This document shows, one piece after another, positions 9,378 through 39,195 of a stretch of DNA of 64,000 nt. The notes under the pieces are model-generated. The model did no database searches, was not told the origin of the DNA, and saw nothing but the letters and a program-made list of their open reading frames with translations. The translations under genes and the position numbers were made by a program. Position 1 is the stretch's first letter. Every line of letters starts with the position of its first letter. The stretch spans positions 13,168 through 77,167 of the forward strand of contig JAFYZW010000010.1 in assembly GCA_017548545.1 (NCBI GenBank). The letters run 5' to 3'. This DNA is from Bacteroidales bacterium (GTDB lineage: Bacteria; Bacteroidota; Bacteroidia; Bacteroidales; UBA3663).

Positions 9378-9400
9378 CACCCTCAAAAATACTTTATAAT

Positions 9401-21372: not shown

Positions 21373-22467
21373 TTATCTGCGATGGCTGCCACCTCCATGA
21401 TTGCCGCCATGTGAGTTTCCGCCGCTGTGATGCGAGCTTCCGCCACCATGAGAACCGCCGCCGCTACGGGAGTGAGAGCCGCTGCTCGAACGGGGAGCGC
21501 TGGCTGCACGAGTCGAGCTGCTTGCGCCACGCTGAGTGGTGCCCTGCATACGCTCTGACCTGCCGCTCGACTGCTGGCGCATCTGACGGCCATTGTCCTG
21601 TGGACGGGCGTGCGAATTGCGGCTATTGCTGCCACCTCGATTCACGTCGCCGTTGGGACGACCATTGCCGCTGCCGCCGCCAGGGTTCATACCGTTGCCG
21701 TGGCTATTGCCGCCACCAGAATGGTTGTCGTCGCCGCGATGGTTTATACCATCGTTCGGGCGACCGTTACCGCCACCATTGGGGCGACCTGTCCCACCGC
21801 CGTTGGGACGATTGCCGCCGTCACGGTAGTGACGATTGCTGCCGCCACCAGGCATGGAATGGCTGTTGTGCGGACGAGTTGCATGATGGTGACTCGGACG
21901 GTAAGCATGAGGGCCGAAGTCGTGACGACCACCACCGCGATGGATCGGACGGTAATGGGCATAGATGTGGTGGTGATAGCGACCGCCTCCGTAGTACCCA
22001 TGGGGGAAGTAGTGGCGTCCGTGGCCTCCGAAGTAGGTGTGGTAGATGAGCGGAGGATCGTAGTAGAAGAACCTCGTGTTCGTATAGTACTGGAACACAC
22101 GGAACAGCCAGTTGCCTGCGTATGTATAGACAGGGCGGAAGAAGTAGTCGAGAGCCGAGAAGGCCAGATACTGAGCCTCGGTCATGATGTAGCGCAAGTC
22201 ATCGTTGCGGTAATCGAGATAGTTGTAGTACCGATCGATATACTCGGGCCTGCCATAGACCACTTCGTCCATGATGGGGTTGATCGAACAGATGAAATCG
22301 TAGTTGATCTCGTAGCAGTCCTCAATCTGCTGTGGAGTCAAGTTAAGCTCGTATGCCATTCTATCGGTCAAGAAACGTGCATTCTCGCGGATTTCGAGCG
22401 GGGTCAGGGCGAAGGCCTGAACCACGCCGGTGATGGCTACTGCCATGGTAACAAGTAACTTCTTCAT
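21373..22467 (-). CDS. secreted protein with a structured N-terminal domain (one LTxxQ motif) and a ~215-aa His/Gly/Arg/Asn/Ser-rich low-complexity tail
   Basis: 364 aa. Signal peptide MKKLLVTMAVAITGVVQAFA. The tail contains GGGRHDFGPHAYRPSHHH...GRPNGGGTGRPNGGGNGRPNDG...GGSHGGGSSHHSGGNSHGGNHGGGSHRR. All overlapping alternate-frame ORFs are artefacts of the low-complexity sequence. Confidence 0.65.
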   Translation of the reverse strand: MKKLLVTMAVAITGVVQAFALTPLEIRENARFLTDRMAYELNLTPQQIEDCYEINYDFICSINPIMDEVVYGRPEYIDRYYNYLDYRNDDLRYIMTEAQYLAFSALDYFFRPVYTYAGNWLFRVFQYYTNTRFFYYDPPLIYHTYFGGHGRHYFPHGYYGGGRYHHHIYAHYRPIHRGGGRHDFGPHAYRPSHHHATRPHNSHSMPGGGSNRHYRDGGNRPNGGGTGRPNGGGNGRPNDGINHRGDDNHSGGGNSHGNGMNPGGGSGNGRPNGDVNRGGSNSRNSHARPQDNGRQMRQQSSGRSERMQGTTQRGASSSTRAASAPRSSSGSHSRSGGGSHGGGSSHHSGGNSHGGNHGGGSHRR

Positions 22468-22605
22468 AGCTTCTGACGTTTTATAGGGTTTATACTAATT
22501 TCTTGCTTTTGCCTATATGACGCAACACTATTCGAAAAGTTTAAACGATTCTTGCTTTACCAGTCCTTCGAAGGTGCCATCACAGAGAATAACTAATTTA
22601 ATATG

Positions 22606-23008
22606 GAGCAAGCATTATGACGGCCGACATAATGCTTGCGCGATTTGAAAGAGCACTCTGACGGCCGACATAATGCTTGCGCAATCTGATGGAGCACTCT
22701 GACGCGCGACAAAATGCTTTCGCGATTTGATAGAGCACTCTGACGGCCGACATAATGCTTTCGCGATTTGATAGAGCATTCTGACGCGCGACATAATGCT
22801 TTCGCGATTTGATAGAGCACTCTGACGGCCGACATAATGCTTCCGCGATCTGATAGAGCACTCTTACGGCCGACATAATGCTTCCGCGATCTGATAGAGC
22901 ACTCTGACGCGCGACATAATACTTTCGCGATTTGATTGAGCACTCTGACGCGCGACATAATGCTTTCGCGATTTGATAAAGTACTCTGACGCGCGACATA
23001 ATGCTTGC
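22606..23008. repeat. 41-bp tandem repeat array, ~10 copies, bounded by a 14-bp inverted repeat
   Basis: Unit: GAGCACTCTGAC(G/C)GC(C/G)GACATAATGCTT(T/G/C)CGCGAT(T/C)TGAT(A/G). Unit starts are at 22651, 22692, 22733, 22774, 22815, 22856, 22897, 22938 and 22979. The left end GAGCAAGCATTATG is the reverse complement of the right end CATAATGCTTGCTC. Confidence 0.9.
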
Positions 23009-23146
23009 TCTGGTTTTTTAAGTAAATAATGATGAAATATGGGGAAATTGATATTTAAAGATTGCATTATATGGGTAAAAATAACTATTATTGTAGAATG
23101 TGGTGTCAAATGTCTAGGTTCTCTTGATGATATCATAAGGAATTCC

Positions 23147-23154
23147 TATCTTTG
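23147..23154 (+). promoter_or_regulatory. -7 box TAtcTTTG (LruC-like cassette 1)
   Basis: Lies 75 nt upstream of the ATG at 23229. The surrounding sequence is conserved with cassettes 2 and 3. Confidence 0.5.
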
Positions 23155-23228
23155 CAACCGATAGTCTAATTTGACCTACCATTATTTTGATTAAGTAGTA
23201 AATTTTATATAACAAATCTTAACTTAAT

Positions 23229-24983
23229 ATGAACAAAACATTATCTTTGGCAATCGCCACTTTAGGACTCCTTACCTTCGGCAGTCTCACCTCCTGCCAG
23301 GACGAGGATTTTGATGTGAGCACTGCTGTGCTCCAGGAACGAGCCTTCGAACAGAGTTTCATCAATGAATTCGGTAAACCATCAGCTAATCAGAGCTGGG
23401 ACTTTTATGCGCAAAAGATGGAGTCTATTCGTCGAGAGGCGGGCATGACTCGTGCAACGATGGCAGATCCGATAGTCGTAGAAGTAGATACAACTATCAG
23501 TCAGCCAACGGATAAGTATTTTACAGACATTGTTAATGATATCGCGTTTGCTTTGGAAGAAAAGATCAACAACTCCAATACTGGCCAGAACAATTACACG
23601 CTTACTTCTACAGGTGACTTTAAGATTTACGCTGTAAGATATGCAGGTGCCATAGAAACAGGAGCACAATACGACTTTGATTTCGGCATAGCTTATATCG
23701 ATCCAGCTGACGATCAAGAGCACAAGGTGTCGATTTTCGGACGCGGGTATAGGAATAAAGCCTATAGGGATTCATGCTATGCTCATAACAGTAATGGTTG
23801 GGGCAACCCTGGAAAAGCAGCCGATGTTAAGATCCCTAAGGGCATATCGTTTTATTTTTATTTTGATTATACCAATCCTTTTAGAAACGGCGGTCCAAGT
23901 ATTAGACAGCATTTCTATTCAAATGAATCTCCAGTGTTCGTTCGAAAGGATGGCGTATCTACCTTTACTTTCCCTGAGTTTGGTGGAACCACAACATTGC
24001 TTTACTCTACCGACCACATTGACCCTGTAACAGGCAGGGATGAACAAGTCATGATGATTGGCTTGGAAGACGCTTGGGGCCATGATAACGGCAATGATGA
24101 TGCAGAGGGTACGCAGACTGGATGGTTTGACAAGGACTTTAACGACGTTGTCGTACTCATTGAAGGTGAACTTCCTGTCCCCACCAGCAAGCGCTTCTTT
24201 ACTGAGGATAAGAAGTCGTACGACTGGGATTACAATGATGTGGTGTTCGATGTATCGAATACAGGTATTGTACTCCGTGCTGTGGGAGGTACGCTGCCTG
24301 TTTTCTTGCGTGTAAAGAATAGATTGCCAGAGAGTACTTATGAACTTGTAAGTTTAAAAGCTGATGATGGAAAGACATACGCAGAGCTTCATGAACTCAT
24401 GCGAGCAATACAGCCGCAAACGGGTAAGAGAACTTTCCCATTGACCTATCAGCGTCAAGAATTGGATGGATCGATGGGAACCTACTACAAACCCATCGAC
24501 GTGGCTGCCTATGAAGTGTCGGGCATCGAAATGATCTGGTTTGATGCAGTACAGATCGTCAGATGGATAAGTCTGGGCACTTCAACCCAAAACACTCGAC
24601 TTGAAGAAGACGAGGTGGAGCGGTTTGCCAACCCGTTGGTTTCGGATCCCGTTGGCGGTGTCGAGTTGATTGTACTCCCGGAATATAAAACAAGTTATAA
24701 TTTGACAGAGATTGCCGCACTCGATGCTTTGACTGCATTGGATGAAGACAATACTTTAAAGGGTGCCAAGATTGTCACAATGACAGAAGTCGGAGGTATT
24801 CCTGCCATGTGGTCAGGTCCTGTATCCATCAACTGGATGAAGGAGGAGAAGAAGATCACAACTGGTTATAGCAATTTCTATGGCGGAGGTACTGCCGATG
24901 ACGATGGCATTCCTCAGTGGTGGGAGAATGGATTGAATTCCGACAACTGGTATCAGTATTGGGGAGATTATGAATTACCATAA
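23229..24983 (+). CDS. LruC-domain (DUF4842)-like surface lipoprotein, paralog 1
   Basis: 584 aa. Lipobox LTSCQDED. IGLEDAWG...DKDFNDVVVLIEG and DWDYNDVVFDV motifs resemble FEDxWPxxGDYDxNDxVV. The C-terminal IPAMWSGPVSINWMKEEKKITTGYSNFYGGG...NWYQYW resembles the LruC C-terminal LPWAL...I..AY..F..W...DWY. Confidence 0.55.
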   Translation: MNKTLSLAIATLGLLTFGSLTSCQDEDFDVSTAVLQERAFEQSFINEFGKPSANQSWDFYAQKMESIRREAGMTRATMADPIVVEVDTTISQPTDKYFTDIVNDIAFALEEKINNSNTGQNNYTLTSTGDFKIYAVRYAGAIETGAQYDFDFGIAYIDPADDQEHKVSIFGRGYRNKAYRDSCYAHNSNGWGNPGKAADVKIPKGISFYFYFDYTNPFRNGGPSIRQHFYSNESPVFVRKDGVSTFTFPEFGGTTTLLYSTDHIDPVTGRDEQVMMIGLEDAWGHDNGNDDAEGTQTGWFDKDFNDVVVLIEGELPVPTSKRFFTEDKKSYDWDYNDVVFDVSNTGIVLRAVGGTLPVFLRVKNRLPESTYELVSLKADDGKTYAELHELMRAIQPQTGKRTFPLTYQRQELDGSMGTYYKPIDVAAYEVSGIEMIWFDAVQIVRWISLGTSTQNTRLEEDEVERFANPLVSDPVGGVELIVLPEYKTSYNLTEIAALDALTALDEDNTLKGAKIVTMTEVGGIPAMWSGPVSINWMKEEKKITTGYSNFYGGGTADDDGIPQWWENGLNSDNWYQYWGDYELP

Positions 24984-25020
24984 AACAACCAATGATTCAC
25001 AAATAAATCCATCAGTTCAT

Positions 25021-25054
25021 AACAACAGGCATGGCTTCGGTCATGCCTGTTGTT
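25021..25054 (+). terminator. hairpin terminator of cassette 1
   Basis: ACAACAGGCATG-gcttcggt-CATGCCTGTTGT. Confidence 0.65.
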
Positions 25055-25200
25055 ATGAGCCGTGAAACTTCAGCGCTTGAATCGGTCATAATTCTTGCGG
25101 AAAATGATAGATTTGGATAGCATTCTAATGGAAATAATACAATTATTGATGAATAGGTAATTTAATGGCTTGATTTTTTGAAGATATTGTAAGGAATTAG

Positions 25201-25208
25201 TAATTTTG
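25201..25208 (+). promoter_or_regulatory. promoter of cassette 2 (TTTG-N20-TAatTTTG)
   Basis: ttTTTGaagatattgtaaggaattagTAATTTTG. Confidence 0.55.
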
Positions 25209-25281
25209 CAACCAATATTCTATCTTGCCCTTTCACAAACTCAATAGAAAGTAATTTTATTTATAAAAAACTTAACTTAAT

Positions 25282-26856
25282 ATGAAAAAAACATTATATT
25301 TGGCAGTAACCATTTTAGGACTCCTTACCTTCGGCAGTTTTACCTCTTGCCAGGACGAGGATTTTGATGTGAGCTCAACGGTGCTCAAGGAACGTGCCTT
25401 TGAACAAGGCTTTATCAAGGAATTCGGTAAACCATCTCCTAATCAGACTTGGGACTTCTATGCCCAGAAGATGGAGAATCTTTTTGGCAGTACGACACGA
25501 GCAACGATGGCAGAAGATCCTGTATGTACGGTGACTCTTGGCGTGGAACAGAGTTATGATATTGATTTGATTCAGGATATCGTTAATACAAAACTTCCAG
25601 CAGGAAAAGATAACTCTAATCAGGGACAGAATACCTATACTTTGAGGTCGGTAGGCAAGTTCAAGATTTCTGCGGTAAACTATGGTGGTAACGTTGAGAC
25701 AGTAGATTCATGGGATTTTCACTTCGGAATCTGCTGGAGGAAAGCCAACGGAGAGAGAGATTCTGTGGAATTATTCTCGACACAAACCATTCGTCAGGAA
25801 ATGAGTTATTATACCGTTCCTAACTCTAATCCCCCACGTTATTATGGTAATCCTGAACTGGCAGCAGAAGTGGAGTTGACTTACAATACACCTTTCTCCT
25901 TCTATATGGAATATACTAGACCGGCACAGCAGGACCATTGGATTTTTTATTCCGATGAGAAGCCCGATCCCACTGGAGGTTCGATATCAAGTTCAACTGG
26001 ACAGGCAGATGGAAATAAATATGAGGGTCCGTCAACCCTTCTCTATTCCCTGGAGGATCTGACAGCAGATGGTACTCAGGAGCAGATTATCGTTCTTGGC
26101 TTTGAAGACATTTGGTTCCCAGGTGGCAGTTCAGATCGTGATTTCAATGACGTGGTTCTCTTCATTGAGGGTACACTCCCTATCGCTAGTTCGAAGCGCT
26201 TTTTCTCGGAAGACCTCGAATCGTATGACTATGACTACAATGACGTTGTTTTTGACCTTACGAGTTCGGGCATCGTCCTGCGTGCTGTCGGCGGCACACT
26301 GCCCGTGTATCTGAAGATTTTGCCTAAAGGGGGAGATCCAGAGAATGATAATGACTGGGTGACTACAGATGAACTTCATGAGGTGATGCATGAGGGCAAT
26401 GGCAATGCCAAAGCGGGACATAAGACCTTTCAGTTAGGCGACAAGACACTTTATTCGCCTATTAATGTGGGAGACACAAAAAATGGTGTCAAACTTGATG
26501 CAGTCCGAATACCTGGCATCGCATGGACAGGTGATCAATGGCTCACTGCAGATGATGTGACCAATTTTGCAAACAGTCTGTCAGGCAGTAAGGTTGGGGA
26601 TGTCAAGTTGTTGGTAGGAAATCCAGCAGAAGTGCTTGACAAGGTCGATAGTACTGACGGTATTATAGAATACCAAGCTGTGGGAGGCGTTCCTGCCATC
26701 TGGTGGGGACCTGTGGACATCAACTGGATGAAGGAAATGCAGAAGATCTCTTTGGGCTACGAGTATTTTTATGGAGGCGCACCCGAAGGTGGCAGTTATT
26801 GGTATGAAGGAGGAAAACATTCAGAATATTGGTATGCGGGCGGCGACAAGTGGTAA
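25282..26856 (+). CDS. LruC-domain-like surface lipoprotein, paralog 2
   Basis: 524 aa. Same N-terminus (LTFGSFTSCQDEDFDVS), FEDIWFPGGSSDRDFNDVVLFIEG, YDYDYNDVVFDL, and C-terminal VPAIWWGPVDINWMKEMQKISLGYEYFYGG. Confidence 0.55.
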   Translation: MKKTLYLAVTILGLLTFGSFTSCQDEDFDVSSTVLKERAFEQGFIKEFGKPSPNQTWDFYAQKMENLFGSTTRATMAEDPVCTVTLGVEQSYDIDLIQDIVNTKLPAGKDNSNQGQNTYTLRSVGKFKISAVNYGGNVETVDSWDFHFGICWRKANGERDSVELFSTQTIRQEMSYYTVPNSNPPRYYGNPELAAEVELTYNTPFSFYMEYTRPAQQDHWIFYSDEKPDPTGGSISSSTGQADGNKYEGPSTLLYSLEDLTADGTQEQIIVLGFEDIWFPGGSSDRDFNDVVLFIEGTLPIASSKRFFSEDLESYDYDYNDVVFDLTSSGIVLRAVGGTLPVYLKILPKGGDPENDNDWVTTDELHEVMHEGNGNAKAGHKTFQLGDKTLYSPINVGDTKNGVKLDAVRIPGIAWTGDQWLTADDVTNFANSLSGSKVGDVKLLVGNPAEVLDKVDSTDGIIEYQAVGGVPAIWWGPVDINWMKEMQKISLGYEYFYGGAPEGGSYWYEGGKHSEYWYAGGDKW

Positions 26857-26915
26857 TGTCGGAGTCCTCACTGTCAGGTAATAACGTTATATTATTTACG
26901 TATTTTAGTATCATT

Positions 26916-26946
26916 CAGGCATGGCTTTGGTCATGCCTGTTTTTTG
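26916..26946 (+). terminator. hairpin plus T-run terminator of cassette 2
   Basis: CAGGCATG-gctttggt-CATGCCTG followed by TTTTTT. Confidence 0.7.
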
Positions 26947-27091
26947 CTCCTGTATAACTTGACCGGTTCGATTGGTCATACATCATCCGGAAAATGATAG
27001 TTTTGGATAGCATTCATATTGGAAAAATCCAAATATTGATGAATGATGTATCAAATGACTTGATTCTTTTGAAGATGTCACAAGAAATTAG

Positions 27092-27099
27092 TACCTTTG
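27092..27099 (+). promoter_or_regulatory. promoter of cassette 3 (TTTG-N20-TAccTTTG)
   Basis: cTTTTGaagatgtcacaagaaattagTACCTTTG. Confidence 0.55.
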
Positions 27100-27168
27100 C
27101 AGCCAAAATTATTTATTGCCTATTCACTTATTTGATTAAAGTTATTATATTAAAAAATCATCACTTAT

Positions 27169-28797
27169 ATGAAAAAACCATTATATTTGGCAGTAGCCAT
27201 TTTGGGAATCCTTGCCTTTGGCAGTCTCACTTCTTGCCAGGATGAGGATTTTGGTGTGAGCACAGCTGTGCTGAAAGAGAAAGCATTTGAACAGGGCTTC
27301 ATCAAGGAGTTCGGCAAACCTTCAGCCGACCAGAGTTGGGATTTCTATGCCCAGCAGATGGAGGCTATCCGTCGGGGGGCTGGCAAGACACGTGCGACGA
27401 TGGCAGATCCTGACGAAGTAACTGTATCAAACGCCTCTCAACCGACGGACAAAGATTATTTTAATTCTATTGTCAGCGATGTTAAAATGGTCTTGGAGGA
27501 CGAAATCAACAATTCTCATGTCGGACAGAATCATTACGAGCTAACTTCTACTGGTACATTCAATGTTTACGCGATACTATATGCAGGCGATTATGAGAAG
27601 TATTCTAAGTTCAATTTGGATTTCGGCATCGCATATATGAATGGTAATACAGAAGTTAGGAAAAAACTTTTTGGATATAAGTCTGGTAGCGGTGAAATCA
27701 ACCCTGGCTATGCAAAACAAGTTTATATTACACCTGGAGCTTCGTTTTATTTTTATATGAGTATTACTCCAAGTGGAAGTGCTTGGAATCCAACTTATTA
27801 TAGGTTCTATTCGAATTCATCAACCTATAAATATGGAACCAATGTTAATTACTTAAATAACAATGGAACCCTAATAGGTAAAGATGGAAATACTTATGAT
27901 GGTGCTTCAACATTGGTTTATTCTATGGAAGTTAATGACGAAGCCGAAGGTGATAAGCAAATCATGATTATTGGTTTTGAAGACGGGTGGGCAGGTACAG
28001 CTGACCTTGACTTTAACGACTTGGTCATAATGATCGAAGGAGATCTTCCTGTTCCTGCCGCCAAGCGCTTCTTCTGTGAAGACAAGGAGTCATTGGATTG
28101 GGACTACAACGATGTGGTGTTCGACGTGATGAACTCAGGTATCGTGCTTCGTGCAGTGGGCGGTACACTTCCAGTATGGTTGCTTGTGAAGAATAGAGAA
28201 TCAAATGAATACAAAGATATCGGAGGCGAGCTTCATGAACTGATGAGAAGCAAACAATTCCAAACAAGTCACCAAAATGCTCAGTTGACCTATCGACGCA
28301 AAGATGAAAATGGGGAAGAGAAGACCTTTTACCGCCCCATTGACGTAGGTGTTGAACATGGGCTTTGGCTTGATCCTGTCCAGGTTGTTCGATGGACGAC
28401 AAGTATGCAAGCAGGTCAACCAGACACGCGATTGAGGGAAGGCGAGGTGGAACGTTTTGCCAATCCCTTTGTGAATAATCCCGTAGGTGGACTTAAATTG
28501 GTCGTGGGCAGTGAGTATGGACAGACTTTAGCCGATGCTATTGAACGTGCTACGGTGGATATGGATAGTAAGGAAACTATCATTGAGATTGATGGCTTTG
28601 GAAGCATACCTGCCATCTGGTCTGGTCCTGTGTCTGTCAGATGGATGAAGGAGTTGGAAAAGATCACTAAGGGTTACCCTGACTTCTATGGAGGAGGCAC
28701 TCCTGCAGAGAGTGGCAGCCAACCACAATGGTGGGTGAGCAATATAAATACAAGTTACATGTATGACTTCTGGGGTGATGGTGGAGATACGCTCTAA
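27169..28797 (+). CDS. LruC-domain-like surface lipoprotein, paralog 3
   Basis: 542 aa. LAFGSLTSCQDEDFGVS, FEDGWAGTADLDFNDLVIMIEG, LDWDYNDVVFDV, and C-terminal IPAIWSGPVSVRWMKELEKITKGYPDFYGGG. Confidence 0.55.
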   Translation: MKKPLYLAVAILGILAFGSLTSCQDEDFGVSTAVLKEKAFEQGFIKEFGKPSADQSWDFYAQQMEAIRRGAGKTRATMADPDEVTVSNASQPTDKDYFNSIVSDVKMVLEDEINNSHVGQNHYELTSTGTFNVYAILYAGDYEKYSKFNLDFGIAYMNGNTEVRKKLFGYKSGSGEINPGYAKQVYITPGASFYFYMSITPSGSAWNPTYYRFYSNSSTYKYGTNVNYLNNNGTLIGKDGNTYDGASTLVYSMEVNDEAEGDKQIMIIGFEDGWAGTADLDFNDLVIMIEGDLPVPAAKRFFCEDKESLDWDYNDVVFDVMNSGIVLRAVGGTLPVWLLVKNRESNEYKDIGGELHELMRSKQFQTSHQNAQLTYRRKDENGEEKTFYRPIDVGVEHGLWLDPVQVVRWTTSMQAGQPDTRLREGEVERFANPFVNNPVGGLKLVVGSEYGQTLADAIERATVDMDSKETIIEIDGFGSIPAIWSGPVSVRWMKELEKITKGYPDFYGGGTPAESGSQPQWWVSNINTSYMYDFWGDGGDTL

Positions 28798-28834
28798 CTA
28801 ATTCTTGATTCCAGTTTGTTATGCCATAATCATT

Positions 28835-28866
28835 CAGGCATGGCCTCAGTCATGCCTGTTTTTTTC
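28835..28866 (+). terminator. hairpin plus T-run terminator of cassette 3
   Basis: CAGGCATG-gcctcagt-CATGCCTG followed by TTTTTTT. Confidence 0.7.
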
Positions 28867-28916
28867 ATTTGCTTACAAAGAGATTAGGACTTGGCGAGAA
28901 GTTGTAATATAATAAA

Positions 28917-28944
28917 GAGAGGTCTGCTGTGATGCAGGCCTCTC
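28917..28944 (-). terminator. hairpin terminator of the lectin gene
   Basis: GAGAGGTCTGC-tgtga-TGCAGGCCTCTC, 40 nt after the minus-strand stop, followed by a T-rich tract on the minus strand. Confidence 0.55.
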
Positions 28945-28984
28945 TATTGGGGGATTGGTGTGGTTGTTCAGGATGCCGTTATGC

Positions 28985-31900
28985 CTATTTGTTCACACGC
29001 TCCATGATCCACTGCTGGTTGATAGCGTTGTGTCGTCCGTAAAGTTGTATGCCGCGGTTCTCTTCATATTTCGCCCCTTCGACATCAATGGCTCGGCCTT
29101 CGTCTTTCGTGAGTAGCAGCAAGTAGTTGCCGTTGTCCATCTTCACGGCCTTCCAGCGTTCGAGATCCGAGCCCGAGTATTCGCTGAGCCATAGGAAGCC
29201 GCGCAGCTGGTCGTTGATGCTGATGACGTACTTTTCATCCAACATGCTGCGCAGGACGTAGGAGCCATCCTTCTCGCGCGACAATCTCCACTTCTGAGCA
29301 TCGGATTTCTTGTTTTTCTGAATTACCATCCTCAGGTGGTTTGACGCCTTGCCATTCACTGTAATCACATAGTCTGGGTCGCCTGCAGTCTTGATGATAT
29401 AGATGTTCCCTTCGTTCTGGGTGGTCGAAGAGGGTTTAGTGGTGGTTGAAGACGTGTTTGAAGTGTTGGATGTTGTGGAGCCGTCTGCACGTTCCATGAT
29501 CCACTGTTGGTTAGTGCCATTGTGCCGTGGGTAAAGCTGTAAGGTAGCGTTATCCTCCCATACTGCCCCTTCTATATCCAGTGCCTGGCTCTGTTTTTTC
29601 GAGTGTATCAGCACGTAGTTGCCGTTGTCCATCTTCACGGCTTTCCAACGTTCGAGATCCGAGCCTTTGGATTCGTTTAGCATCACAAATCCGCTCAGTT
29701 GATCGTTGCCACAGATGACGTAGTTTTCGTCCAACAGGCTGCGCAGGATGTAGGTGCCGTCCTTCTGGCGTGACAATCTCCATTTCTGAGCATTCGACTT
29801 CTGATTCTTCTGGATTACCATACGCTTTTGCTTTGCCACCTTGCCATCAGTCACTGTGACCACGTAGTTCGGGTCGCCCGCACTCTTTATATAATAGACA
29901 TTCCCTTCGTACTGGGTGGACGAAGATGTATTTGTGTTACCGCTGTTGTTGTTCGAAGGCTTTGTTGTGGTTGTCGTGGTAGTTGTACCGCTGTTGTTGT
30001 TTGAAGGCTTCGTGGTGTTTGTCGTGTTTGTGCTACCACTATTGTTGTTCGAAGGCTTCGAAGTAGTTGTTGTGGTAGTGCTACCACTGTTGTTGTTTGA
30101 AGGCTTGGTCGTGGAAGTCCCATCCACACGTTCCATGATCCATTGCTGGTTGAGGTCGTTGTGGCGTCCGTATAGCTGGACGCCCTGGTTCTCCGCATAT
30201 TTTGCTGCTTCGATGTCTAGGGCGCGGTTCTGGTCTTTCGAACACAACAGCATGTAGTTCCCGTTAGGCATCTTCACGGCCTTCCAGCGTTCGAGCTCCG
30301 AGCCTTTGAATTCGCTGAGCCATGCAAATCCGCGCAACTGGTCGTTGATGCTGATGACGAAGTTTTCGTCCGACATGCTACGTAGGGCATATGTGTCGTC
30401 CTTCTCGTGTGTCAATCTCCACTTCTGTGCATCCGTTTTCTTGTTTTTCTGGATAACAATCCTCTGATGGTTGGACGCCTTGCCGTTTACCGCAAGTACG
30501 TAGTTCGGGTCGCCTGCACTCTTGATATAATAGACATTACCTTCGTGTGGGGTGGACGAAGAGGTGTTTGTAGAACCACTATTGTTGTTTGAAGGCTTCG
30601 TTGTGGTTGTGGTTGTCGTAGTAGTTGTACCGCTGTTGTTGTTCGAAGGATTCGTAGACGATGTTGTGGATGTCTGCGTTGCGGAATTGTCACCGGGCTT
30701 ATCTTTTTCACAGCTACGGATCTTGAAACTTCCTTCCGACTTGCCGTAATTGCGGCTCTGTATCCCATGGGATAGTTGTGCCTCGTGCTTCTCGCTTGGA
30801 CCTTTGATTCTCACCAGGAGCGTTCCTGTCTCTCCAGGCTCCAAACGAGTGGCGTGTACAACGGCTGTTGCCAGGTCAGATTTGTCCATGTAGCCATACC
30901 CAGAGTTCTTGCCATAGACGGTTCCTGTGGTGCGGCCTGTGACGCGCACTTTTACCATTTCACCTCTCTTGTCGCGGTACTTTGAAATGTCGGGGTCGGT
31001 GACTTCGGTAACAGGAACTCCGATTACCTTGAATGCACCTTTCGCCTTCTTGTAGCTTTGGCTCTTAATGCCATTTCGAGTGATAGAGGGATAGCTGCCC
31101 TGGTCGGCTACGATTTCTATTACCACCTTGTCCACATTCCCTTCCACTTGGGCAGCAGCATGGAGGCTGGCAGTGGCAAGGTCGGAATCGATGGTGTAGA
31201 TGTAGTTCTTGCCACCCCAGATCTTGCCGTCTTTCCTCGCTTTCACCCAGAAAGTGAACCGTTGTCCGATTTTGTCGCGATATGGCGTAAGGTCGTCCGG
31301 CGCATCGATGACAGTCGATGAGGGCGTAGATGTAGTGGTAGTCGTTGGCGATGTGTTATTGTTGTTTGAGGATGTATTATTATTAGATGTGTTATTATTG
31401 TTAGAAGATGTATTGGTGTTGTTTGAGGATGTGTTGGTGTTATTAGAATTAGTGTCGTTTAAAGGGTTGGATGTGGAAGTCCCATCCACACGTTCCATGA
31501 TCCACTGCTGGTTGAGGTCGTTGTGGCGTCCGTATAGCTGGACGCCCTGGTTCTCCGCATATTTTGCTGCTTCGATGTCCAGGGCGCGGTTCTGGTCTTT
31601 CGAACACAACAGCTGGTAGTTTCCGTTAGGCATCTTCACGGCCTTCCAGCGTTCGAGCTCCGAGCCTTTGAATTCGCTGAGCCACGCAAATCCTCGTAGC
31701 TGGTCGTTGATGCTGATGACGAATTTTTCATCCGACATGTTATGCAGGGCATATGTGTCGTCCTTCTCGTGTGTCAATCTCCACTTCTGTGCATCAGTTT
31801 TCTGATTCTTCTGGATCACTATCCTCTGATGGTTGGACGCCTTGCCGTTTACCGCAAGTACGTAGTTCGGGTCGCCTGCACTCTTGATATAATAGACATT

Positions 31901-32524
31901 ACCCGCAGACTGGTCGGACGAGGAGGTGTTTGTGGATCCGCTATTGTTGTTCGAAGGATTCGTAGTGTTTGTGGGTGACGTGGAATTCGTGTCAGATCCT
32001 GATGTAGTGCTGCTCTTGACCTTTTCGAATGTCCACTGTTGATGATTGCATTTGTGCGTGCTCCATAGTTCTACGATTCCATTGTTCTTGGCATTATTGG
32101 TGCCATCCTTCAGTTCGAGGCAGAAATTCTTGTTGTCGCACGCCATCAGGACATATGAGCCATTGTTCTGCCGTTCGGGTACCCATTTCTGGCGATTTAT
32201 CCCCGTGTATGACGAAGTTACAATCAGGGCATTATTGGCTATCTGATTGTTTTTCGAATTGATGACAAGCTTGTTGTTGGCAACACTTCGCAGGATGATA
32301 GCACCACCGCTGAGGTTCTCCACTTCCCACATCTGGGAGGTCTTGTTCTGCCACTCATAGGCTACAATCTGATTGCCATCGGAAGCCTTGTCCCCTTTCA
32401 GCGTCAGTGCGTAGGAGGGGCTTTCGGTGTACTTGATGACATAGACACCATTGGGGATTACTTGAGCCATTGCGGCCAGTACGAAGAAGATAAGTGCGAT
32501 GACTGCAGTGATTCGTTTTTTCAT
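28985..32524 (-). CDS. secreted multi-domain lectin: 5 ricin-type beta-trefoil (CBM13-like) domains plus 2 central LCCL-like domains, joined by Ser/Thr/Asn-rich linkers
   Basis: 1179 aa. Signal peptide MKKRITAVIALIFFVLAAMAQ. (Q/E)xW triads recur in each ~140-aa unit (QMW/QKW/QQW, QKWRL/ERWKAV/QQWIMERV). The two central ~100-aa units, YRDKxG...G(K/T)(I/V)(W/Y)G...Y..(D)SDLATA..HA...(E)..G....V.I......Y.......GI(K/Q)S..Y.K..G(A/S)FK(V/I), match the LCCL pattern but lack its cysteines. Linkers carry KPSNNNSG repeats. Confidence 0.7.
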   Translation of the reverse strand: MKKRITAVIALIFFVLAAMAQVIPNGVYVIKYTESPSYALTLKGDKASDGNQIVAYEWQNKTSQMWEVENLSGGAIILRSVANNKLVINSKNNQIANNALIVTSSYTGINRQKWVPERQNNGSYVLMACDNKNFCLELKDGTNNAKNNGIVELWSTHKCNHQQWTFEKVKSSTTSGSDTNSTSPTNTTNPSNNNSGSTNTSSSDQSAGNVYYIKSAGDPNYVLAVNGKASNHQRIVIQKNQKTDAQKWRLTHEKDDTYALHNMSDEKFVISINDQLRGFAWLSEFKGSELERWKAVKMPNGNYQLLCSKDQNRALDIEAAKYAENQGVQLYGRHNDLNQQWIMERVDGTSTSNPLNDTNSNNTNTSSNNTNTSSNNNNTSNNNTSSNNNNTSPTTTTTSTPSSTVIDAPDDLTPYRDKIGQRFTFWVKARKDGKIWGGKNYIYTIDSDLATASLHAAAQVEGNVDKVVIEIVADQGSYPSITRNGIKSQSYKKAKGAFKVIGVPVTEVTDPDISKYRDKRGEMVKVRVTGRTTGTVYGKNSGYGYMDKSDLATAVVHATRLEPGETGTLLVRIKGPSEKHEAQLSHGIQSRNYGKSEGSFKIRSCEKDKPGDNSATQTSTTSSTNPSNNNSGTTTTTTTTTTKPSNNNSGSTNTSSSTPHEGNVYYIKSAGDPNYVLAVNGKASNHQRIVIQKNKKTDAQKWRLTHEKDDTYALRSMSDENFVISINDQLRGFAWLSEFKGSELERWKAVKMPNGNYMLLCSKDQNRALDIEAAKYAENQGVQLYGRHNDLNQQWIMERVDGTSTTKPSNNNSGSTTTTTTSKPSNNNSGSTNTTNTTKPSNNNSGTTTTTTTTKPSNNNSGNTNTSSSTQYEGNVYYIKSAGDPNYVVTVTDGKVAKQKRMVIQKNQKSNAQKWRLSRQKDGTYILRSLLDENYVICGNDQLSGFVMLNESKGSDLERWKAVKMDNGNYVLIHSKKQSQALDIEGAVWEDNATLQLYPRHNGTNQQWIMERADGSTTSNTSNTSSTTTKPSSTTQNEGNIYIIKTAGDPDYVITVNGKASNHLRMVIQKNKKSDAQKWRLSREKDGSYVLRSMLDEKYVISINDQLRGFLWLSEYSGSDLERWKAVKMDNGNYLLLLTKDEGRAIDVEGAKYEENRGIQLYGRHNAINQQWIMERVNK
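30111..30541. repeat. 431-bp intragenic direct repeat, copy A (ricin unit 3)
   Basis: Nearly identical by eye (a few dozen substitutions at most) to 31473-31903. The offset is exactly 1362 bp (454 codons). Confidence 0.9.
31473..31903. repeat. 431-bp intragenic direct repeat, copy B (ricin unit 2)
   Basis: See copy A. Both begin gtggaagtcccatccacacgttccatgatcca and end cttgatataatagacattacc. Confidence 0.9.
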
Positions 32525-32946: not shown

Positions 32947-35900
32947 ATGAAAAAAACAATCAAGTTATTCGGTGCGAAGCTTGTGATGATGCTTGTAATG
33001 ATGTTCACGGTGCAGGTGGCATTGGCACAAGGCAAGATCTCAGGCAGCGTCGTTGATGCGACTGGAGAACCTGTCACTGGTGCATCCATTGTCGTGGTTG
33101 GAACCCTTAATGGTACGGTTTCGGATATTGATGGCAATTTCAGCATCAATGTGAAGTCGGACGACATGCTTCAGATTTCGTACATCGGTTACGTCACTCA
33201 GACGGTCAAGCCGGTTAATGGCATGACGGTGACGCTGGCAGAAGACAACGAAATGATCGACGAGGTTGTTGTCGTAGGTTACGGTGTACAGCGCAAGAGT
33301 GACCTTACCGGTGCTGTAGCCAAGGTAGATGGCAAGACCCTCGAGGAGCGTCCGATGGCGAACATCGTGCAGGCCCTGCAGGGTGCTGTTCCCGGCCTGA
33401 ACATCTCGGTGACAGGTACCAATGCCGAAGGTTCGAGCTCGCAGACACGTATTCGTGGCGAGAAATCCATCTCGGCCGATAACAAGCCGCTCATCATCCT
33501 CGATGGTATCCCTTTCGATGGCCCTTGGTCGGAAATCAACCCCAACGATGTGGCCTCGGTGGAAGTGCTGAAGGATGCCTCGTCGGCCGCCATCTACGGT
33601 GCTCGAGGCTCGAATGGTGTTATTCTGATCACCACAAAGAAGGGTGACAAGGGCAAACTGAACGTTTCGTACTCGGCCAACTTCACAGTCAACAAAGCCG
33701 TCATCGTGCCGCGTCTGATGACTGGTCAGGAATTCTGGGATGCCAAGATTGATGCCTTGAAGGCTGCCAACGTGATTGACCCTACACCTTCGAATCCCGA
33801 GCCTTGGATGGGCAATATCACTATGACGGAGCAGCGTCTGCACGATGCCGGATTGGAGACCGACTGGCTTGACCTCGCCTTGCGTACCGCTTTCAGTCAG
33901 CACCACAACCTTTCGTTCCGTGGTGGCGTAAACAAAACGTCCTACTACGTTTCGTTCAACCTGGCCGACAATGAGGGCATCGCCGTGGGCAACAATTTCC
34001 AGCGTGTCAACCTGCGTGTGAACCTTGACCAGGAGTTCACCGACTGGCTGAAGTTCTCGACCAACACCCAACTGGGTCGTTTCGACCGCAGTGGCAGCAA
34101 CGCCTCATTCAGCCGTGCGTTCAAGATGAACCCATTGGCCGAGGCCTACAACGAGGATGGTTCGATTCGCTCTACCGCTTGGGAGGACTCGAGCGAGGCA
34201 TTCTGTGTGAATCCGCTCGATGCATTGAACAACAGGACTCGCGATATTCGCTATAAGGTCGTCACCAACAATGCCCTCGACATCAAGATCCCGTGGATCA
34301 AGGGCCTGACCTATCGCCTGAACACTGGCTTCACCTATGAGAACTCATCGTGGAAGCAGTACCAGGGACTTGACACCTATTATGGAGCCCGTGCCAACGG
34401 TATCATCAACACCGACGACTGGCATTCGGAGGAATGGATCATCGAGAACATCGTTTCGTACAATCGCGAGTTCGGCAAACATCGCCTTTTCCTCACCGGA
34501 CTCTATTCGGCTCAGAGCAAGGAGTACGAACAGAACACGATGGAGGGCAAGGACTTCCCCAATGACGTGATGTACTATTACCAGATGTCGAAGGCCAGCA
34601 CCTCGTCGGGCAGTTCTTCGTATTGGAAGGTGAACCACCTGTCGCAGATGTTCCGTATCAACTATACCTACGACAGCCGCTATCTGTTGACCCTCACGGC
34701 CCGTCGCGACGGCTATTCGGCCTTCGGTGCCGACTCGAAGTTCGGTGTGTTCCCGTCGATGGCATTGGGTTGGAACGTGATGAACGAGAAGTTCTTCAAG
34801 TCGGCCTTGGACGTGATGAATAATCTGAAGTTACGCCTTTCGTGGGGCAAGAATGGCAATGAGGCCATTTCGGCCTATTCGTCATTACCAAACCTCTCGA
34901 CCTATAATTATTTGAACGACGACCATACAGCCATGTACGGCTTCTTCCCCGAGAAACTGGCTTCGCCAACCCTTGGCTGGGAGACGACACAGCAGGTGAA
35001 CTTCGGTGTGGATTTCGCTTTCTTGAACAATCGCATTTCGGGTACGTTCGATACCTATTGGTCACATACCAAGGACCTGTTGCTCAATCGTTCCATTCCC
35101 ACCATCAACGGTACGGGCAACATTACCGAGAATCGTGGCAAGACCAAGGGCTCGGGCTGGGAGTTGCAGATCAACAGTACTAACATCGTGAAGAAGAACT
35201 TCACTTGGACCACTACACTCAATCTGGCTCATTACAATACGGAGATTGTCGATGTCGGCATTTACGACGAGAACGGAAACCCTGTGGATGACGTGGCTTC
35301 ACGCTGGTTCATCGGTGAGCCCATCAGCGTTAACTACGACTATAAGAAGATCGGCATCTGGCAGATTGCCGATGCTTCGAATCCCAAGGGCCAGCAGGAC
35401 CCCAACTACCGCTATTCGATTCCGGGATACGTGAAGGTGGAAGACAAGGATGGCCAGAATGACATCACCCCCGATGACATGCAGCTCATCGGATCGGCAG
35501 TGCCTTGGCTGATTGCTTCGCTATCGAACAGCCTTTCGTACAAAGGACTTACACTTACCGTCTTCCTCAACTCGGAGTTTGGACGCTCGGCCAACAATAC
35601 GCTGATGACCGTCTATTCGAACTCGTATCGCCAGAACCGCCTCTACCATGACTTCTGGACACCCGAGAATCCTACAAACGACTATCCGATGAATAGTCTT
35701 GACGCAGGTCCCAACCCTTACGATGCAGGATTCTATGAGGATGCCTGGTTCGTGAGACTGCAGAACGTCAACTTGAGCTACAACCTTCCTTCTACTTGGC
35801 TTAAGAAGATTAAGCTCAGCCGTGTACAGGTTTATGTCGATGGCAAAAACCTGAAGGTATGGACACCATGGAAGGGTCTTGATCCTGAATATACCTCCAA

Positions 35901-35958
35901 CCAGCAAAGCACGCCGCCTCAGCGGTCGATCAGCTTTGGCTTGAAAATCGATCTTTAA
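32947..35958 (+). CDS. susC: SusC/RagA family TonB-linked outer membrane protein
   Basis: 1003 aa. CarbopepD_reg N-terminus (GKISGSVVDATGEPVTGASIVV), the SusC plug (VVVGYGVQRKSDLTGAV, ILITTKKG), and C-terminal PQRSISFGLKIDL. Confidence 0.92.
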   Translation: MKKTIKLFGAKLVMMLVMMFTVQVALAQGKISGSVVDATGEPVTGASIVVVGTLNGTVSDIDGNFSINVKSDDMLQISYIGYVTQTVKPVNGMTVTLAEDNEMIDEVVVVGYGVQRKSDLTGAVAKVDGKTLEERPMANIVQALQGAVPGLNISVTGTNAEGSSSQTRIRGEKSISADNKPLIILDGIPFDGPWSEINPNDVASVEVLKDASSAAIYGARGSNGVILITTKKGDKGKLNVSYSANFTVNKAVIVPRLMTGQEFWDAKIDALKAANVIDPTPSNPEPWMGNITMTEQRLHDAGLETDWLDLALRTAFSQHHNLSFRGGVNKTSYYVSFNLADNEGIAVGNNFQRVNLRVNLDQEFTDWLKFSTNTQLGRFDRSGSNASFSRAFKMNPLAEAYNEDGSIRSTAWEDSSEAFCVNPLDALNNRTRDIRYKVVTNNALDIKIPWIKGLTYRLNTGFTYENSSWKQYQGLDTYYGARANGIINTDDWHSEEWIIENIVSYNREFGKHRLFLTGLYSAQSKEYEQNTMEGKDFPNDVMYYYQMSKASTSSGSSSYWKVNHLSQMFRINYTYDSRYLLTLTARRDGYSAFGADSKFGVFPSMALGWNVMNEKFFKSALDVMNNLKLRLSWGKNGNEAISAYSSLPNLSTYNYLNDDHTAMYGFFPEKLASPTLGWETTQQVNFGVDFAFLNNRISGTFDTYWSHTKDLLLNRSIPTINGTGNITENRGKTKGSGWELQINSTNIVKKNFTWTTTLNLAHYNTEIVDVGIYDENGNPVDDVASRWFIGEPISVNYDYKKIGIWQIADASNPKGQQDPNYRYSIPGYVKVEDKDGQNDITPDDMQLIGSAVPWLIASLSNSLSYKGLTLTVFLNSEFGRSANNTLMTVYSNSYRQNRLYHDFWTPENPTNDYPMNSLDAGPNPYDAGFYEDAWFVRLQNVNLSYNLPSTWLKKIKLSRVQVYVDGKNLKVWTPWKGLDPEYTSNQQSTPPQRSISFGLKIDL

Positions 35959-35991
35959 TCATCAATGGTCTTCAAATAAAAAACTAAAGAT

Positions 35992-37782
35992 ATGAAAAGC
36001 AAGAAAACTATCATAGCATGTCTGTTCCTCGCCCTTGGTCTGGCAGGATGCAACGAAGACTCCTTCCTCGAAGAGCAGCCCCATTCGTCGCTTTATCCCG
36101 AGAACCTTTTGGTGGATTACAACGGCTTCCAGTCGATGATCACGCCTCTGTATGGCATGATGCGTGCCGAATATCGTCGTGCCGATGCCTTGGGCGGTGG
36201 CATCCCGCTGGTGCTCCACAGCGCTTGGGGAGGCGGCGTCGATAACTCGTGGGCCAACAACAGCCACTCGGAGCTGAAGTTCATGTACTATCCTTCGGCC
36301 ATCAAGCAGGTCGATCTGCAGATCTTCTCCAACGTTTTCCGTTGGTGCTACCGCATCATCAACACCGCGAACATGATCATCGCCCGTGCCGAAAACGAGG
36401 AAATAAACTGGGGAGTGGGTGCACAAGCAGAAAAGAACAAGAATGAAATCCTCTCGGAAGCACGCTTTGCCAGAGCGTGGGCCTATCGTCACTTGACCTA
36501 CTCGTTTGGTGCCGTACCCCTTTCGCTCGACGAGATCACGGGTTCGAACTATCGCACTGACTGGGAGCGTACTCCCGTGAGCGAGATTCGTAAGGCGATG
36601 GAGGAGGATCTGCTCTTTGCAGCCAACAACCTGCCTCTGCGTCGCAGCAACAATAGCGAGATATCGGGAGCCATGGCACGTCACTATCTGGGAGAGCTCT
36701 ATTTGGCCGAAGGTCAGCCACAGAAGGCCGTCGATATCTTGAAACCACTGGTTGAAGGCAGCGAGTATGCCTTGATGACCGAACGTTTTGGCAAGAATGC
36801 CTCCAATCCAGGTTGCGCTTTCATCGACGTGTTCCGTACCCCGATGTATGTCGATGGCAATAAAGAGGTTCTCTTCGCTTTCGTCAATACCGAACCAGAA
36901 AACTCTGCGTACGGCACAGCTGAGGTTTATATCAAGAGCACCTACAAGGATTACTATTCGAATGATGGCACAATAAAGAAGAGCAACTTGAACGACCCCG
37001 ACTATACTTCGGGAGCGTGCACCTGGCCACAGGCATTCTGGCTCAACAATGGCGGCAAGGGTGCCGGACGTATTGTTCCCTCGCGTGGTTCGCTGCGACT
37101 CTACGATTACAAGGGCATGGGCACCATCGACGACCGTATCTCAGACTATGCGATGGTATGGACTATCAATGACCGCGCTGCCGACGGTACCATCACCAGC
37201 TTCCTGAATAATGGACAGGCCGTAATTGATACCACCGTGACCTCAAAGATGACTGACGAGGGCACCACTTCGATCAAGAAGTACAACTGGCCCACCACAC
37301 GTAAATGGGACTATACGGCTCCCGTAAAAGCTAATGGCGATAAGGACGGCTGCTATCAGGACATAGTCTATCTGCGTTTGGCCGATACCTATCTGCTTTA
37401 TGCCGAGGCTTTGATGAAGATCAGCAAGAACAGTGAGGCTATTAAGTGGATCAACAAGGTACGCAACCGCTCGCATGCCGTCAGCATTGATGAGAACGAT
37501 CTGGCCGTAGGTGGCATGGATTTCATTCTCGACGAGAGAAGCCGCGAACTGCTGTCGGAAGAGGAGCGTCGCCACACATTGATCCGTGTGTGCCAGGAGA
37601 ATGGAGGTGATGAGCGTGACGTGAACAACTACTTCAAGCGTCGTATGCGAGAACTCAACGAGATCGCTGGTCGTCCGGCTCGTGGCATGAATGACTACGA
37701 TACTCCTGTGCTGTTCCCAATTCCTCAGAACTTCATTGAATCGAACTCTGGCCGTGCGCTGGAGAATAATCCAGGGTATTGA
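35992..37782 (+). CDS. susD: SusD/RagB family nutrient-binding outer membrane lipoprotein
   Basis: 596 aa. Lipobox LAGCNEDSFLEE, TPR-like helices (EARFARAWAYRHL, RLADTYLLYAEAL) and the C-terminal ERSRELLSEEERRHTLIR motif. Confidence 0.9.
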   Translation: MKSKKTIIACLFLALGLAGCNEDSFLEEQPHSSLYPENLLVDYNGFQSMITPLYGMMRAEYRRADALGGGIPLVLHSAWGGGVDNSWANNSHSELKFMYYPSAIKQVDLQIFSNVFRWCYRIINTANMIIARAENEEINWGVGAQAEKNKNEILSEARFARAWAYRHLTYSFGAVPLSLDEITGSNYRTDWERTPVSEIRKAMEEDLLFAANNLPLRRSNNSEISGAMARHYLGELYLAEGQPQKAVDILKPLVEGSEYALMTERFGKNASNPGCAFIDVFRTPMYVDGNKEVLFAFVNTEPENSAYGTAEVYIKSTYKDYYSNDGTIKKSNLNDPDYTSGACTWPQAFWLNNGGKGAGRIVPSRGSLRLYDYKGMGTIDDRISDYAMVWTINDRAADGTITSFLNNGQAVIDTTVTSKMTDEGTTSIKKYNWPTTRKWDYTAPVKANGDKDGCYQDIVYLRLADTYLLYAEALMKISKNSEAIKWINKVRNRSHAVSIDENDLAVGGMDFILDERSRELLSEEERRHTLIRVCQENGGDERDVNNYFKRRMRELNEIAGRPARGMNDYDTPVLFPIPQNFIESNSGRALENNPGY

Positions 37783-37820
37783 ATAAGTTTGGTTAATAAT
37801 AATTGTGTGTGTAAAGTGGT

Positions 37821-39185: not shown

Positions 39186-39195
39186 TACGTTCAAG

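Follow-up and report, generated by a model that had tools for sequence, protein, structure and literature searches.

A tandem array of DUF4114-related lipoprotein cassettes with conserved ends and divergent bodies in a Bacteroidales genome

The stretch of DNA analyzed here (the window) comprises 64,000 nucleotides of contig JAFYZW010000010.1 from an uncultured Bacteroidales bacterium of rumen type (assembly GCA_017548545.1), and it contains a tandem array of three lipoprotein genes, c1, c2 and c3, each enclosed in a cassette with its own predicted promoter and hairpin terminator. The array is probably a recombination-driven locus of autonomously expressed, surface-exposed, calcium-dependent binding lipoproteins, either adhesins or lectins. 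The cassettes share an anatomy, a protein family and a conserved set of motifs. Across related genomes they vary in number and type, and they include a chimeric gene, mosaic copies and synonymous divergence (dS) that is decoupled from that of the flanking genes.

All three genes are on the forward strand, at 23229-24983 (c1, 584 amino acids), 25282-26856 (c2, 524 amino acids) and 27169-28797 (c3, 542 amino acids). A first-pass annotation made from the letters of the sequence had described three tandem paralogs here, and the open reading frame (ORF) calls agree; by tblastn they are the sole members of their family in the window. In BLASTP comparisons c1 and c3 are 48% identical, while c2 is 41% identical to each of the others. 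The products of c1 and c3 are 100% identical to NCBI entries IKX25_01050 and IKX25_01060, both from a metagenome-assembled genome (MAG) labelled 'MAG: Bacteroidales bacterium' and both annotated 'hypothetical protein'. The nearest relative of c2 sits in another genome, in one of the five other genomes or contigs (L001 to L005) that, with the window, form a comparison set of six syntenic loci and 15 gene copies; this L001 copy has 85% amino acid identity to c2. The GC content of the cassette block is 0.35-0.47, as against about 0.50-0.56 in the flanks, so that the block is indeed AT-richer, as the annotation had it.

Promoters of the Bacteroidota -33/-7 type can be recognized upstream of each gene. 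Those of c2 (TTTG-N20-TAATTTTG, 25177-25208, forward strand) and c3 (TTTG-N20-TACCTTTG, 27068-27099, forward strand) are exact matches to the motif TTTG-N20-TAnnTTTG that had been proposed for all three copies. The c1 promoter (CTTG-N20-TATCTTTG, 23123-23154, forward strand) aligns with them but has a -33 element one base off consensus, CTTG rather than TTTG. The motif with spacing of 19-21 nucleotides occurs 13 times in the window, typically just 5' of genes, where 0.37 occurrences would be expected, and the -7 box TAnnTTTG is found 5' of 10 of 10 aligned copies, the version in L003_c being TATCTCTG. The upstream blocks that hold the promoters (25060-25281 for c2, which also carries the shared element ...GGAAAATGATAGATTTGGATAGCATTC, and 26946-27168 for c3, both on the forward strand) have a mean column identity of 79%. 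The conserved block of about 250 bp described earlier is therefore present, but the c1 version is more divergent, at 55-78% identity to the c2 and c3 blocks.

At the other end of each gene, the exact pattern CAGGCATG-N8-CATGCCTG occurs once 3' of the coding sequence (25026, 26916 and 28835), with 0 occurrences expected by chance, which bears out the claim that every copy has a terminator of its own. The c1 hairpin (25017-25058) has a 17-bp perfect stem around CAGGCATGGC-TTCG-GTCATGCCTG and no T-run; its predicted RNA fold has a free energy of -36.4 kcal/mol (z -9.75). The c2 terminator (26916-26945) has a 10-bp stem, a UUUG loop and a T-run, and that of c3 (28835-28865) a 10-bp stem followed by a T7 run; all three are on the forward strand. 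As RNAs, the three have stems of 10-21 bp with a UUCG-like loop, and z scores of -5.5 to -9.8. Together these elements make up a junction module of about 470 nucleotides that is 70-90% identical between cassettes, taking in the hairpin (at about -275), the promoter and the 5' untranslated region (UTR) and ending at about +190 within the gene that follows. Its coding part corresponds to the first 65 codons or so, which encode the signal peptide and export signal; past about +190, the identity between cassettes drops to 40-55%. An Rfam scan of the UTRs and junctions found no known RNA element above chance. A sigma-70 promoter scan was dismissed, given that its hits were mostly artefacts of a 41-bp array next to the cassettes and that such promoters are not relevant to Bacteroidota.

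The hairpin belongs to the family at large. A hairpin lies 3', and a -7 box 5', of almost all of the 15 copies at the six loci; L005_c lacks a hairpin match. In a scan of 241 million metagenome records for exact matches to the 24-nucleotide hairpin, 16 contigs were recovered, and in 15 of the 15 that could be tested the hairpin is 30-60 nucleotides downstream of a same-strand family gene, even where the encoded protein is only 44-59% identical to c1. In one cassette type, type D, the hairpin stem shows a compensatory replacement of A-U by G-C. The hairpin is thus a family-specific part of the cassette. In L004, a complete group II intron (5400-7340) is located right behind the hairpin and T-run of the first cassette; it matches Rfam domains D1-D4 (144 bits) and domain V, and contains a reverse transcriptase/maturase ORF at 5832-7238. 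Insertion just 3' of a terminator hairpin is a habit of terminator-targeting bacterial group II introns.

The six loci share a neighborhood, with an M16 peptidase, RNase HII, a DUF4886 protein and a G/H-rich secreted protein of about 350 amino acids on one side of the array, and SusC/SusD, DcuC, an amidohydrolase and an M14 peptidase on the other. Within this setting the arrays differ. There is one copy and a fragment in L001, two copies in L002, three in the window, four in L003, three together with the group II intron in L004, and a fragmented copy plus three copies in L005. Copy number thus ranges from one to four or more, and the identical single-copy synteny that would have spoken against a variable locus is not seen. 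In a tree of the 15 copies, type A consists of W_c1 (W denoting the window), L002_a and L003_b (84-97% identity), type B of W_c2 and L001_a (85%), type C of L003_c and L004_c (78%), and type D of L003_d, L004_b and L005_c (89-93%); five copies, W_c3 among them, are singletons. There are at least nine cassette types over the six loci, and their combinations and orders vary from genome to genome.

Two further comparisons indicate how such variation arises. L002 is collinear with the window, at about 92% identity, up to window position 25476, which is 195 nucleotides into c2, and rejoins it at 28606, where 190 nucleotides of c3 remain. The second L002 gene is chimeric, with an unrelated body placed between a 5' end of the c2 type and a 3' end of the c3 type, and both breakpoints sit in conserved sequence, one in the 5' end of c2 and one in the 3' end of c3. 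The second comparison concerns dS. Between the window and L001, the flanking genes have dS values of 0.91-1.87 and the first 70 codons of the type B gene a value of 1.02, whereas the type B body has 0.13-0.17. Between the window and L002, the values are 0.28-0.56 for the flanking genes and, for successive segments of c1 from N- to C-terminus, 0.39, 0.08, 0.43, 0.03 and 0.00. At synonymous sites, cassette bodies shared by two genomes can thus have diverged 5-8 times less than the genes that flank them, the breakpoint falling within the conserved 5' end. Because body dS is far below flanking-gene dS, the cassette bodies have histories separate from that of the chromosome backbone, with breakpoints in conserved blocks. 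This amounts to direct comparative evidence for recombinational exchange, in which the conserved ends would act as homology arms. Pseudogene fragments are present in L001 and L005. The one in L001 (9807-10067) is a remnant of about 85 codons from the middle of a c3-like gene, behind the single intact cassette and truncated beside a CotH gene; it is the footprint of a cassette loss. No cassette match was found by tblastn in plasmid and phage sequences.

It may be asked whether the cassettes could instead be ordinary, ancient tandem paralogs diverging under relaxed constraint, with promoters, signal peptides and terminators kept similar by constraint and genomes differing through differential loss. 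The paralogs are certainly old, because their synonymous sites are saturated almost throughout, with a proportion of synonymous differences (pS) of about 0.5-1.0. Saturation extends to the conserved protein blocks (pS 0.57-0.91 in amino acids 31-60 and 0.73-0.90 in amino acids 329-358), and since nonsynonymous differences (pN) are few in the same blocks (0.08-0.10 and 0.10, respectively), these blocks reflect purifying selection. For the same reason, the similarity of promoters and terminators has been maintained by selection, by recombination or by both, and does not result from recent duplication. The earlier idea that the whole expression unit was duplicated is correct in that each gene is a self-contained unit of promoter, ORF and terminator, but the recent duplication that it implies is misleading. 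As functional elements, the -33/-7 boxes and the hairpin would be expected to stay conserved under constraint, and dN/dS, the ratio of nonsynonymous to synonymous divergence, is below 1 within types. Constraint leaves unexplained, however, why pS falls to 0.15-0.30 in codons 1-30 and only there (against about 0.7), or why some 220 nucleotides of non-coding sequence should be 70-85% identical with non-motif positions included. Nor does it account for the L002 chimera, for bodies so much less diverged than their flanks with a breakpoint in the 5' end, or for shared types that occur in differing order. Divergence of old paralogs alone is an unlikely explanation of the locus.

Within types, dN/dS is 0.12-0.38 overall and 0.1-0.65 in variable segments, while that of the flanking genes is 0.01-0.17. 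The cassettes are faster-evolving than their neighbors yet are under purifying selection. No positive selection is detected in ortholog comparisons, in which dN/dS is below 1 in every segment, and the paralog comparisons are saturated. Since purifying selection persists within types, the data argue, at the available resolution, for stable and distinct specificities rather than an ongoing arms race. The proposal of a diversified surface-binding or antigenic family is accordingly retained in its first part, a surface-binding family being the best reading, but antigenic variation finds no positive selection to accompany it at these dN/dS values.

The genes had been assigned to the LruC/DUF4842 proteins, and this is not borne out. 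LruC_dom (TIGR04456, an NCBIfam model with a cut-off of 36 bits) is matched only by c3, at 16.2 bits (E 0.0096) and over model positions 3-25, with no match for c1 or c2; DUF4842 (PF16130, cut-off 22 bits) is matched by none of the three. The Pfam domain found instead is DUF4114 (PF13448, cut-off 27 bits), for which c2 (40.5 bits) and c3 (29.4 bits) pass, and c1, at 17.6 bits, is below the cut-off yet clearly homologous. This is the only curated domain reached by the window proteins, and all 74 of 74 family members match it at E<=1, although the match spans only about 45 residues at the end of the model. Across the same 74 members, LruC_dom has weak matches in 26 at E<=1 (best E 4.4e-9) and DUF4842 in one (E 6.3e-5); a distant relative of 936 amino acids reaches 24 bits against DUF4842.

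The 129 homologs found are all from uncultured Bacteroidales or Prevotellaceae of gut and rumen metagenomes, and none is functionally named. At E<=1e-30, an exhaustive profile search of 1.84 billion cluster representatives returned only 56, several of which are fragments; the number rises to 1040 at E<=1e-10 and to 2159 at E<=1e-3. At 50% identity the family has about 56 representatives, and the named sources all give 'hypothetical protein'. The outer shell of the search includes proteins of 1000-1600 amino acids with InlB-type B-repeats, some of which weakly match both ends of the LruC_dom or DUF4842 models. On these profile matches, the three genes belong to a small, uncurated family with a DUF4114 core, which appears to be a distant relative of LruC/DUF4842 and not a member of it. 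What is left of the likeness to LruC is a remote relationship, visible in the weak LruC_dom matches and in a structural match to Protein Data Bank (PDB) entry 3oqq, the Bacteroides ovatus lipoprotein BACOVA_00967. Like Leptospira LruC and LIC13086 and BACOVA_00967, the window family comprises outer-membrane lipoproteins by its predicted features, and it has an FEDxW...DxDFNDxV start, an RAVGG-like block and a C-terminal YPxF...W in the same order. Unlike them, it has a second calcium motif and a different, larger N-terminal half.

The alignment contains all of the motifs noted in the first-pass annotation. The shared N-terminus is ...LTSCQDEDF(D/G)VS..VL.E.AFEQ.FI.EFGKPS..Q.WDFYAQ.ME, the core motifs are FED.W...D.DFND.V..IEG and KRFF.ED..S.D.DYNDVVFD....GIVLRAVGGTLPV, and the C-terminus is ..PA.W.GPV...WMKE..KI..GY..FYGG. 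with the two regions said to diverge (about amino acids 90-270 and 360-470) appearing as low-identity, indel-rich windows between them. Over the family, the conserved blocks are amino acids 21-60, 111-140, 271-345, 361-370 and 471-500, and the variable, indel-rich stretches are 81-110, 141-190, 211-250, 351-360, 371-390, 411-420 and 441-470. From the 74-sequence alignment, AlphaFold2 gave a confident model of c2 (mean predicted local distance difference test score, pLDDT, 81.5; predicted template modeling score, pTM, 0.81), which consists, in order, of the signal peptide, two or three conserved helices (amino acids 32-77), a beta-sandwich (about 80-300) and a second, mostly-beta domain (about 300-524). 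Structure prediction had been suggested as a way to place the variable regions; in the model they are mostly in predicted loops, with up to 11 inserted residues per sequence. The predicted pattern is that of a fixed scaffold with variable surface loops.

A Foldseek search of the PDB with the c2 model gave a single credible match, to 3oqq (probability 0.87, template modeling score 0.21-0.26, 15% identity). The same entry ranks first when the family profile is compared with PDB sequences (E 0.16), with three collinear motifs, FEDxW..DxDFNDVV, RAVGG..P and the C-terminal YPxF...W. It has been described as a putative calcium-binding lipoprotein, and Leptospira LIC13086, a DUF4842 outer-membrane protein modeled on it, binds host matrix and complement components in experiments (PMC8280789). 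A profile of the three paralogs alone yielded only chance-level matches to SycE among PDB sequences, and a short sub-query yielded nothing useful.

Two features of the sequences suggest where the proteins act and how. After the lipobox L-T-S-C, the mature N-terminus of c1, c2 and c3 is C-Q-D-E-D-F, and C-(Q/H)-D-E-D is present in 15 of the 15 copies examined. In Bacteroidota, a polar residue followed by acidic residues after the lipidated cysteine is a lipoprotein export signal that drives surface exposure and packing into vesicles (PMC5080379, PMC6222051). The three proteins fit this consensus, in which the lipobox cysteine precedes a polar residue and at least two of positions +3 to +5 are acidic, and they probably face the cell surface and may also be loaded into vesicles.

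The second feature is a resemblance to the fucose-binding lectin LecB. The family profile aligns GfED...DlDfNDvv with LecB G93-N110, GSEDS..TDNDYNDAVV, so that c2 residues E275, D276, D285, D287, N289 and D290 correspond to LecB E95, D96, D99, D101, N103 and D104. These LecB residues are the side-chain ligands of its two calcium ions together with Asp96, which contacts fucose (PMC8752737). A second copy of the motif occurs in c2 35 residues further on (E310, D311, D316, D318, N320 and D321), and in the 74 sequences each of the twelve positions is either invariant or no less than 90% conserved. The DUF4114 domain itself has been implicated in calcium-dependent adhesion in Myxococcus PilY1.1 (PMC9109919) and is a mannose-binding domain in an Acanthamoeba protein (PMC11934332). 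The likeness to the N-terminal domain of PilY1.1 and the Acanthamoeba protein is one of domain match and proposed calcium-dependent sugar binding or adhesion, and that to LecB/PA-IIL is the equivalence of the E-D...D-x-D-x-N-D motif to the calcium and fucose ligand set. The window family differs from both in having a tandem double motif within a lipoprotein of 520-600 amino acids, along with extra conserved N- and C-terminal modules. By this reasoning, the family proteins are likely to bind their ligands in a calcium-dependent manner.

A model of the locus as an array of recombining, surface-exposed binding lipoproteins would then run as follows. The lipoprotein signal peptide and the acidic export signal would flip each product to the cell surface, and possibly load it into vesicles. 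There, a conserved scaffold of N-terminal helices, beta-sandwich strands, the two tandem E-D...D-x-D-x-N-D motifs and the RAVGG..P block would display the variable loops, and would bind glycans or other surface ligands in a calcium-dependent manner, each cassette type with a specificity of its own. Every cassette would be transcribed separately, from its TTTG-N20-TAnnTTTG promoter to its stable hairpin terminator. The junction module and the conserved 3' end would provide homology arms for homologous recombination, by which cassettes may be added, deleted, replaced or recombined within and between lineages. The outcome would be sets of one to four or more types per genome, drawn from a common pool, with purifying selection maintaining each type; the exchange itself may be of adaptive value.

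Several points weigh against this model. The evidence for recombination is comparative and drawn from a few genomes, which are MAGs in which the assembly of repeated cassettes can be imperfect, and Nei-Gojobori dS estimates on segments of 60-200 codons are noisy. Regulatory constraint alone might conserve the junction. That the proteins are exposed at the surface, bind calcium and bind ligands is in each case inferred. The match to LecB is at the level of the motif only (E 1.4), and the PA-IIL domain (PF07472) is matched by one of the 74 members (E 0.24). Neither the whole model nor the N-terminal domain matches the LecB fold, and the further LecB ligands (the Asn21 main chain and Gly114 of the neighboring subunit) cannot be assigned. 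A lectin or carbohydrate-binding module (CBM) fold is not demonstrated: the isolated N-terminal beta-sandwich model (pLDDT 84) has no credible fold match in the PDB, the best being CBM22, PA14 and alpha-toxin C2-like domains, at probabilities below 0.3.

A different function is suggested by the genes downstream. At 32947-42467 on the forward strand, a conserved SusC/SusD pair precedes genes for a DcuC C4-dicarboxylate carrier, for an amidohydrolase (as seen in L004) and for an M14 carboxypeptidase, an unusual Sus-like locus that does not look glycan-related and is possibly concerned with peptide or amino-acid-derived substrates. It may be that the cassette lipoproteins are accessory proteins that capture substrates for this uptake locus, supplying its TonB-dependent transporter in the manner of surface glycan- or peptide-binding proteins, and that their diversity mirrors those substrates. 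The array adjoins the same SusC/SusD locus in six of six syntenic loci and is directly upstream on the same strand in L003, L004 and L005, and the same export signal is carried by surface lipoproteins that SusC/SusD systems employ (PMC5080379). Every cassette comes with a promoter and terminator of its own, however, and in three loci genes on the opposite strand intervene between the array and SusC (a ricin-lectin gene in the window and L002, a CotH gene in L001). Known accessory binding proteins usually follow susD within the operon, which also counts against such a role. The tempo is mismatched as well; SusC is very strongly conserved between genomes (dN/dS 0.01-0.02, or 0.01-0.03 for SusC/SusD together) while the cassettes turn over. 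An accessory role in uptake is, on balance, distinctly unlikely.

The slot between the array and SusC is itself variable. In the window it holds a gene at 28985-32524 on the reverse strand that encodes a secreted protein of 1179 amino acids. The protein contains an LCCL domain and six ricin-type beta-trefoil lectin domains, and coding repeats of about 48 bp specify its long linkers, which are rich in T/S/N. L002 has a version of 1353 amino acids and L001 a CotH kinase-like gene, and the slot is empty in L003. A second GC-rich hairpin, GAGAGGTCTGC-TGTGA-TGCAGGCCTCTC (28905-28950), occurs between the c3 terminator and the end of this gene and is kept in L002; it is probably the terminator of the convergent ricin-lectin gene. 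On the other side of the array, the reverse-strand gene at 21373-22467 encodes a protein of 364 amino acids. This protein has a signal peptide, is rich in Tyr and Phe over its N-terminal half and ends in a tail that is extremely rich in Gly, His, Arg, Asn and Ser. Pfam gives no match for it, and a counterpart of 345-362 amino acids is kept directly upstream of the cassette array in all of the syntenic loci.

Between this gene and c1, adjoining the c1 upstream region, is a tandem array of 9.7 units of 41 bp (22611-23006, called by Tandem Repeats Finder), which the first-pass annotation did not mention. The 64-kb window has no other non-coding tandem array. The units are imperfect palindromes around CGGCCG/CGCGCG. 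The array is not CRISPR-like, having no spacers, and has no Rfam match; the reverse-strand ORFs called through it look like repeat artefacts. An orthologous array is present in L002 at 9398-9779, and L003 has an unrelated one of 9.8 units of 42 bp (15925-16337), which lies on the opposite side of the cassettes and has a perfect inverted repeat of 8 bp in every unit. A period of 41-42 bp corresponds to roughly four turns of the helix. The 41-bp unit and the cassette upstream element have GATTTG(G)ATAG in common, which is too short to interpret.

A bolder form of the recombination model would make the junction module a dedicated, portable adaptor for recombination and expression, possibly organized by the flanking 41-42-bp palindromic arrays, and would make the proteins a new class of lectins. 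We regard this as speculative and very doubtful. If it were true, rumen and gut Prevotellaceae would be swapping whole surface-lectin cassettes across species, a form of chromosomal exchange that proceeds without a site-specific recombinase, and the doubled LecB-like calcium site would be the defining mark of the new class of surface lectins in bacteria.

Tandem cassettes of a single family, with conserved junctions that include a hairpin and an array of 41-bp palindromic units at the border, also bring to mind a system in which expression is phase-variable or limited to one cassette at a time, by way of invertible promoters or of site-specific recombination at the junctions, as with Bacteroides capsule promoters or integron attC sites. 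A search of 22400-29100 for inverted repeats found only terminators, array units and chance pairs, with none flanking a promoter; no recombinase is seen among the annotated neighbors, and in each of the copies the promoter is intact and oriented ON. Such switching is scarcely credible here. An integron cassette array was rejected, as the hairpin lacks the attC GTTRRRY core, promoters are present, a single family is represented and no integrase is found among the annotated neighbors.

Variable, recombining loci for surface lipoproteins and adhesins are already well known, and the window locus overturns nothing in this respect. The Borrelia Erp/OspE-F proteins, with their 'upstream homology box', and the Mycoplasma Vlp/Vsa proteins are recombining surface lipoprotein families in which the leader region is kept, the bodies have diverged and content varies between strains. 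The present array resembles Borrelia Erp and Mycoplasma Vlp in its clustered paralogs, its near-identical promoter and signal-peptide regions and its variable parts, which would likewise be shuffled by recombination. It differs in that the proteins and the phylum are unrelated, that there are no short-repeat or homopolymer switches, that its types are under purifying selection rather than subject to rapid switching within a host, and that a hairpin is part of the conserved module. Its proteins form an uncharacterized family inside the DUF4114/LruC superfamily. Three things are particular to this locus: LecB-like motifs doubled in tandem, a hairpin that is specific to the family and accompanies each cassette, and clean evidence that cassettes are exchanged across lineages at a fixed chromosomal site.

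Bacteroidales dominate the gut and rumen, and surface lipoproteins largely set what these bacteria bind and how they are recognized by phage, host antibodies and other microbes. An uncurated family with a predicted double calcium site provides concrete candidates for glycan-array or adhesion assays. The locus may also serve as a compact natural example of promoter and terminator sequences that would double as homology arms.

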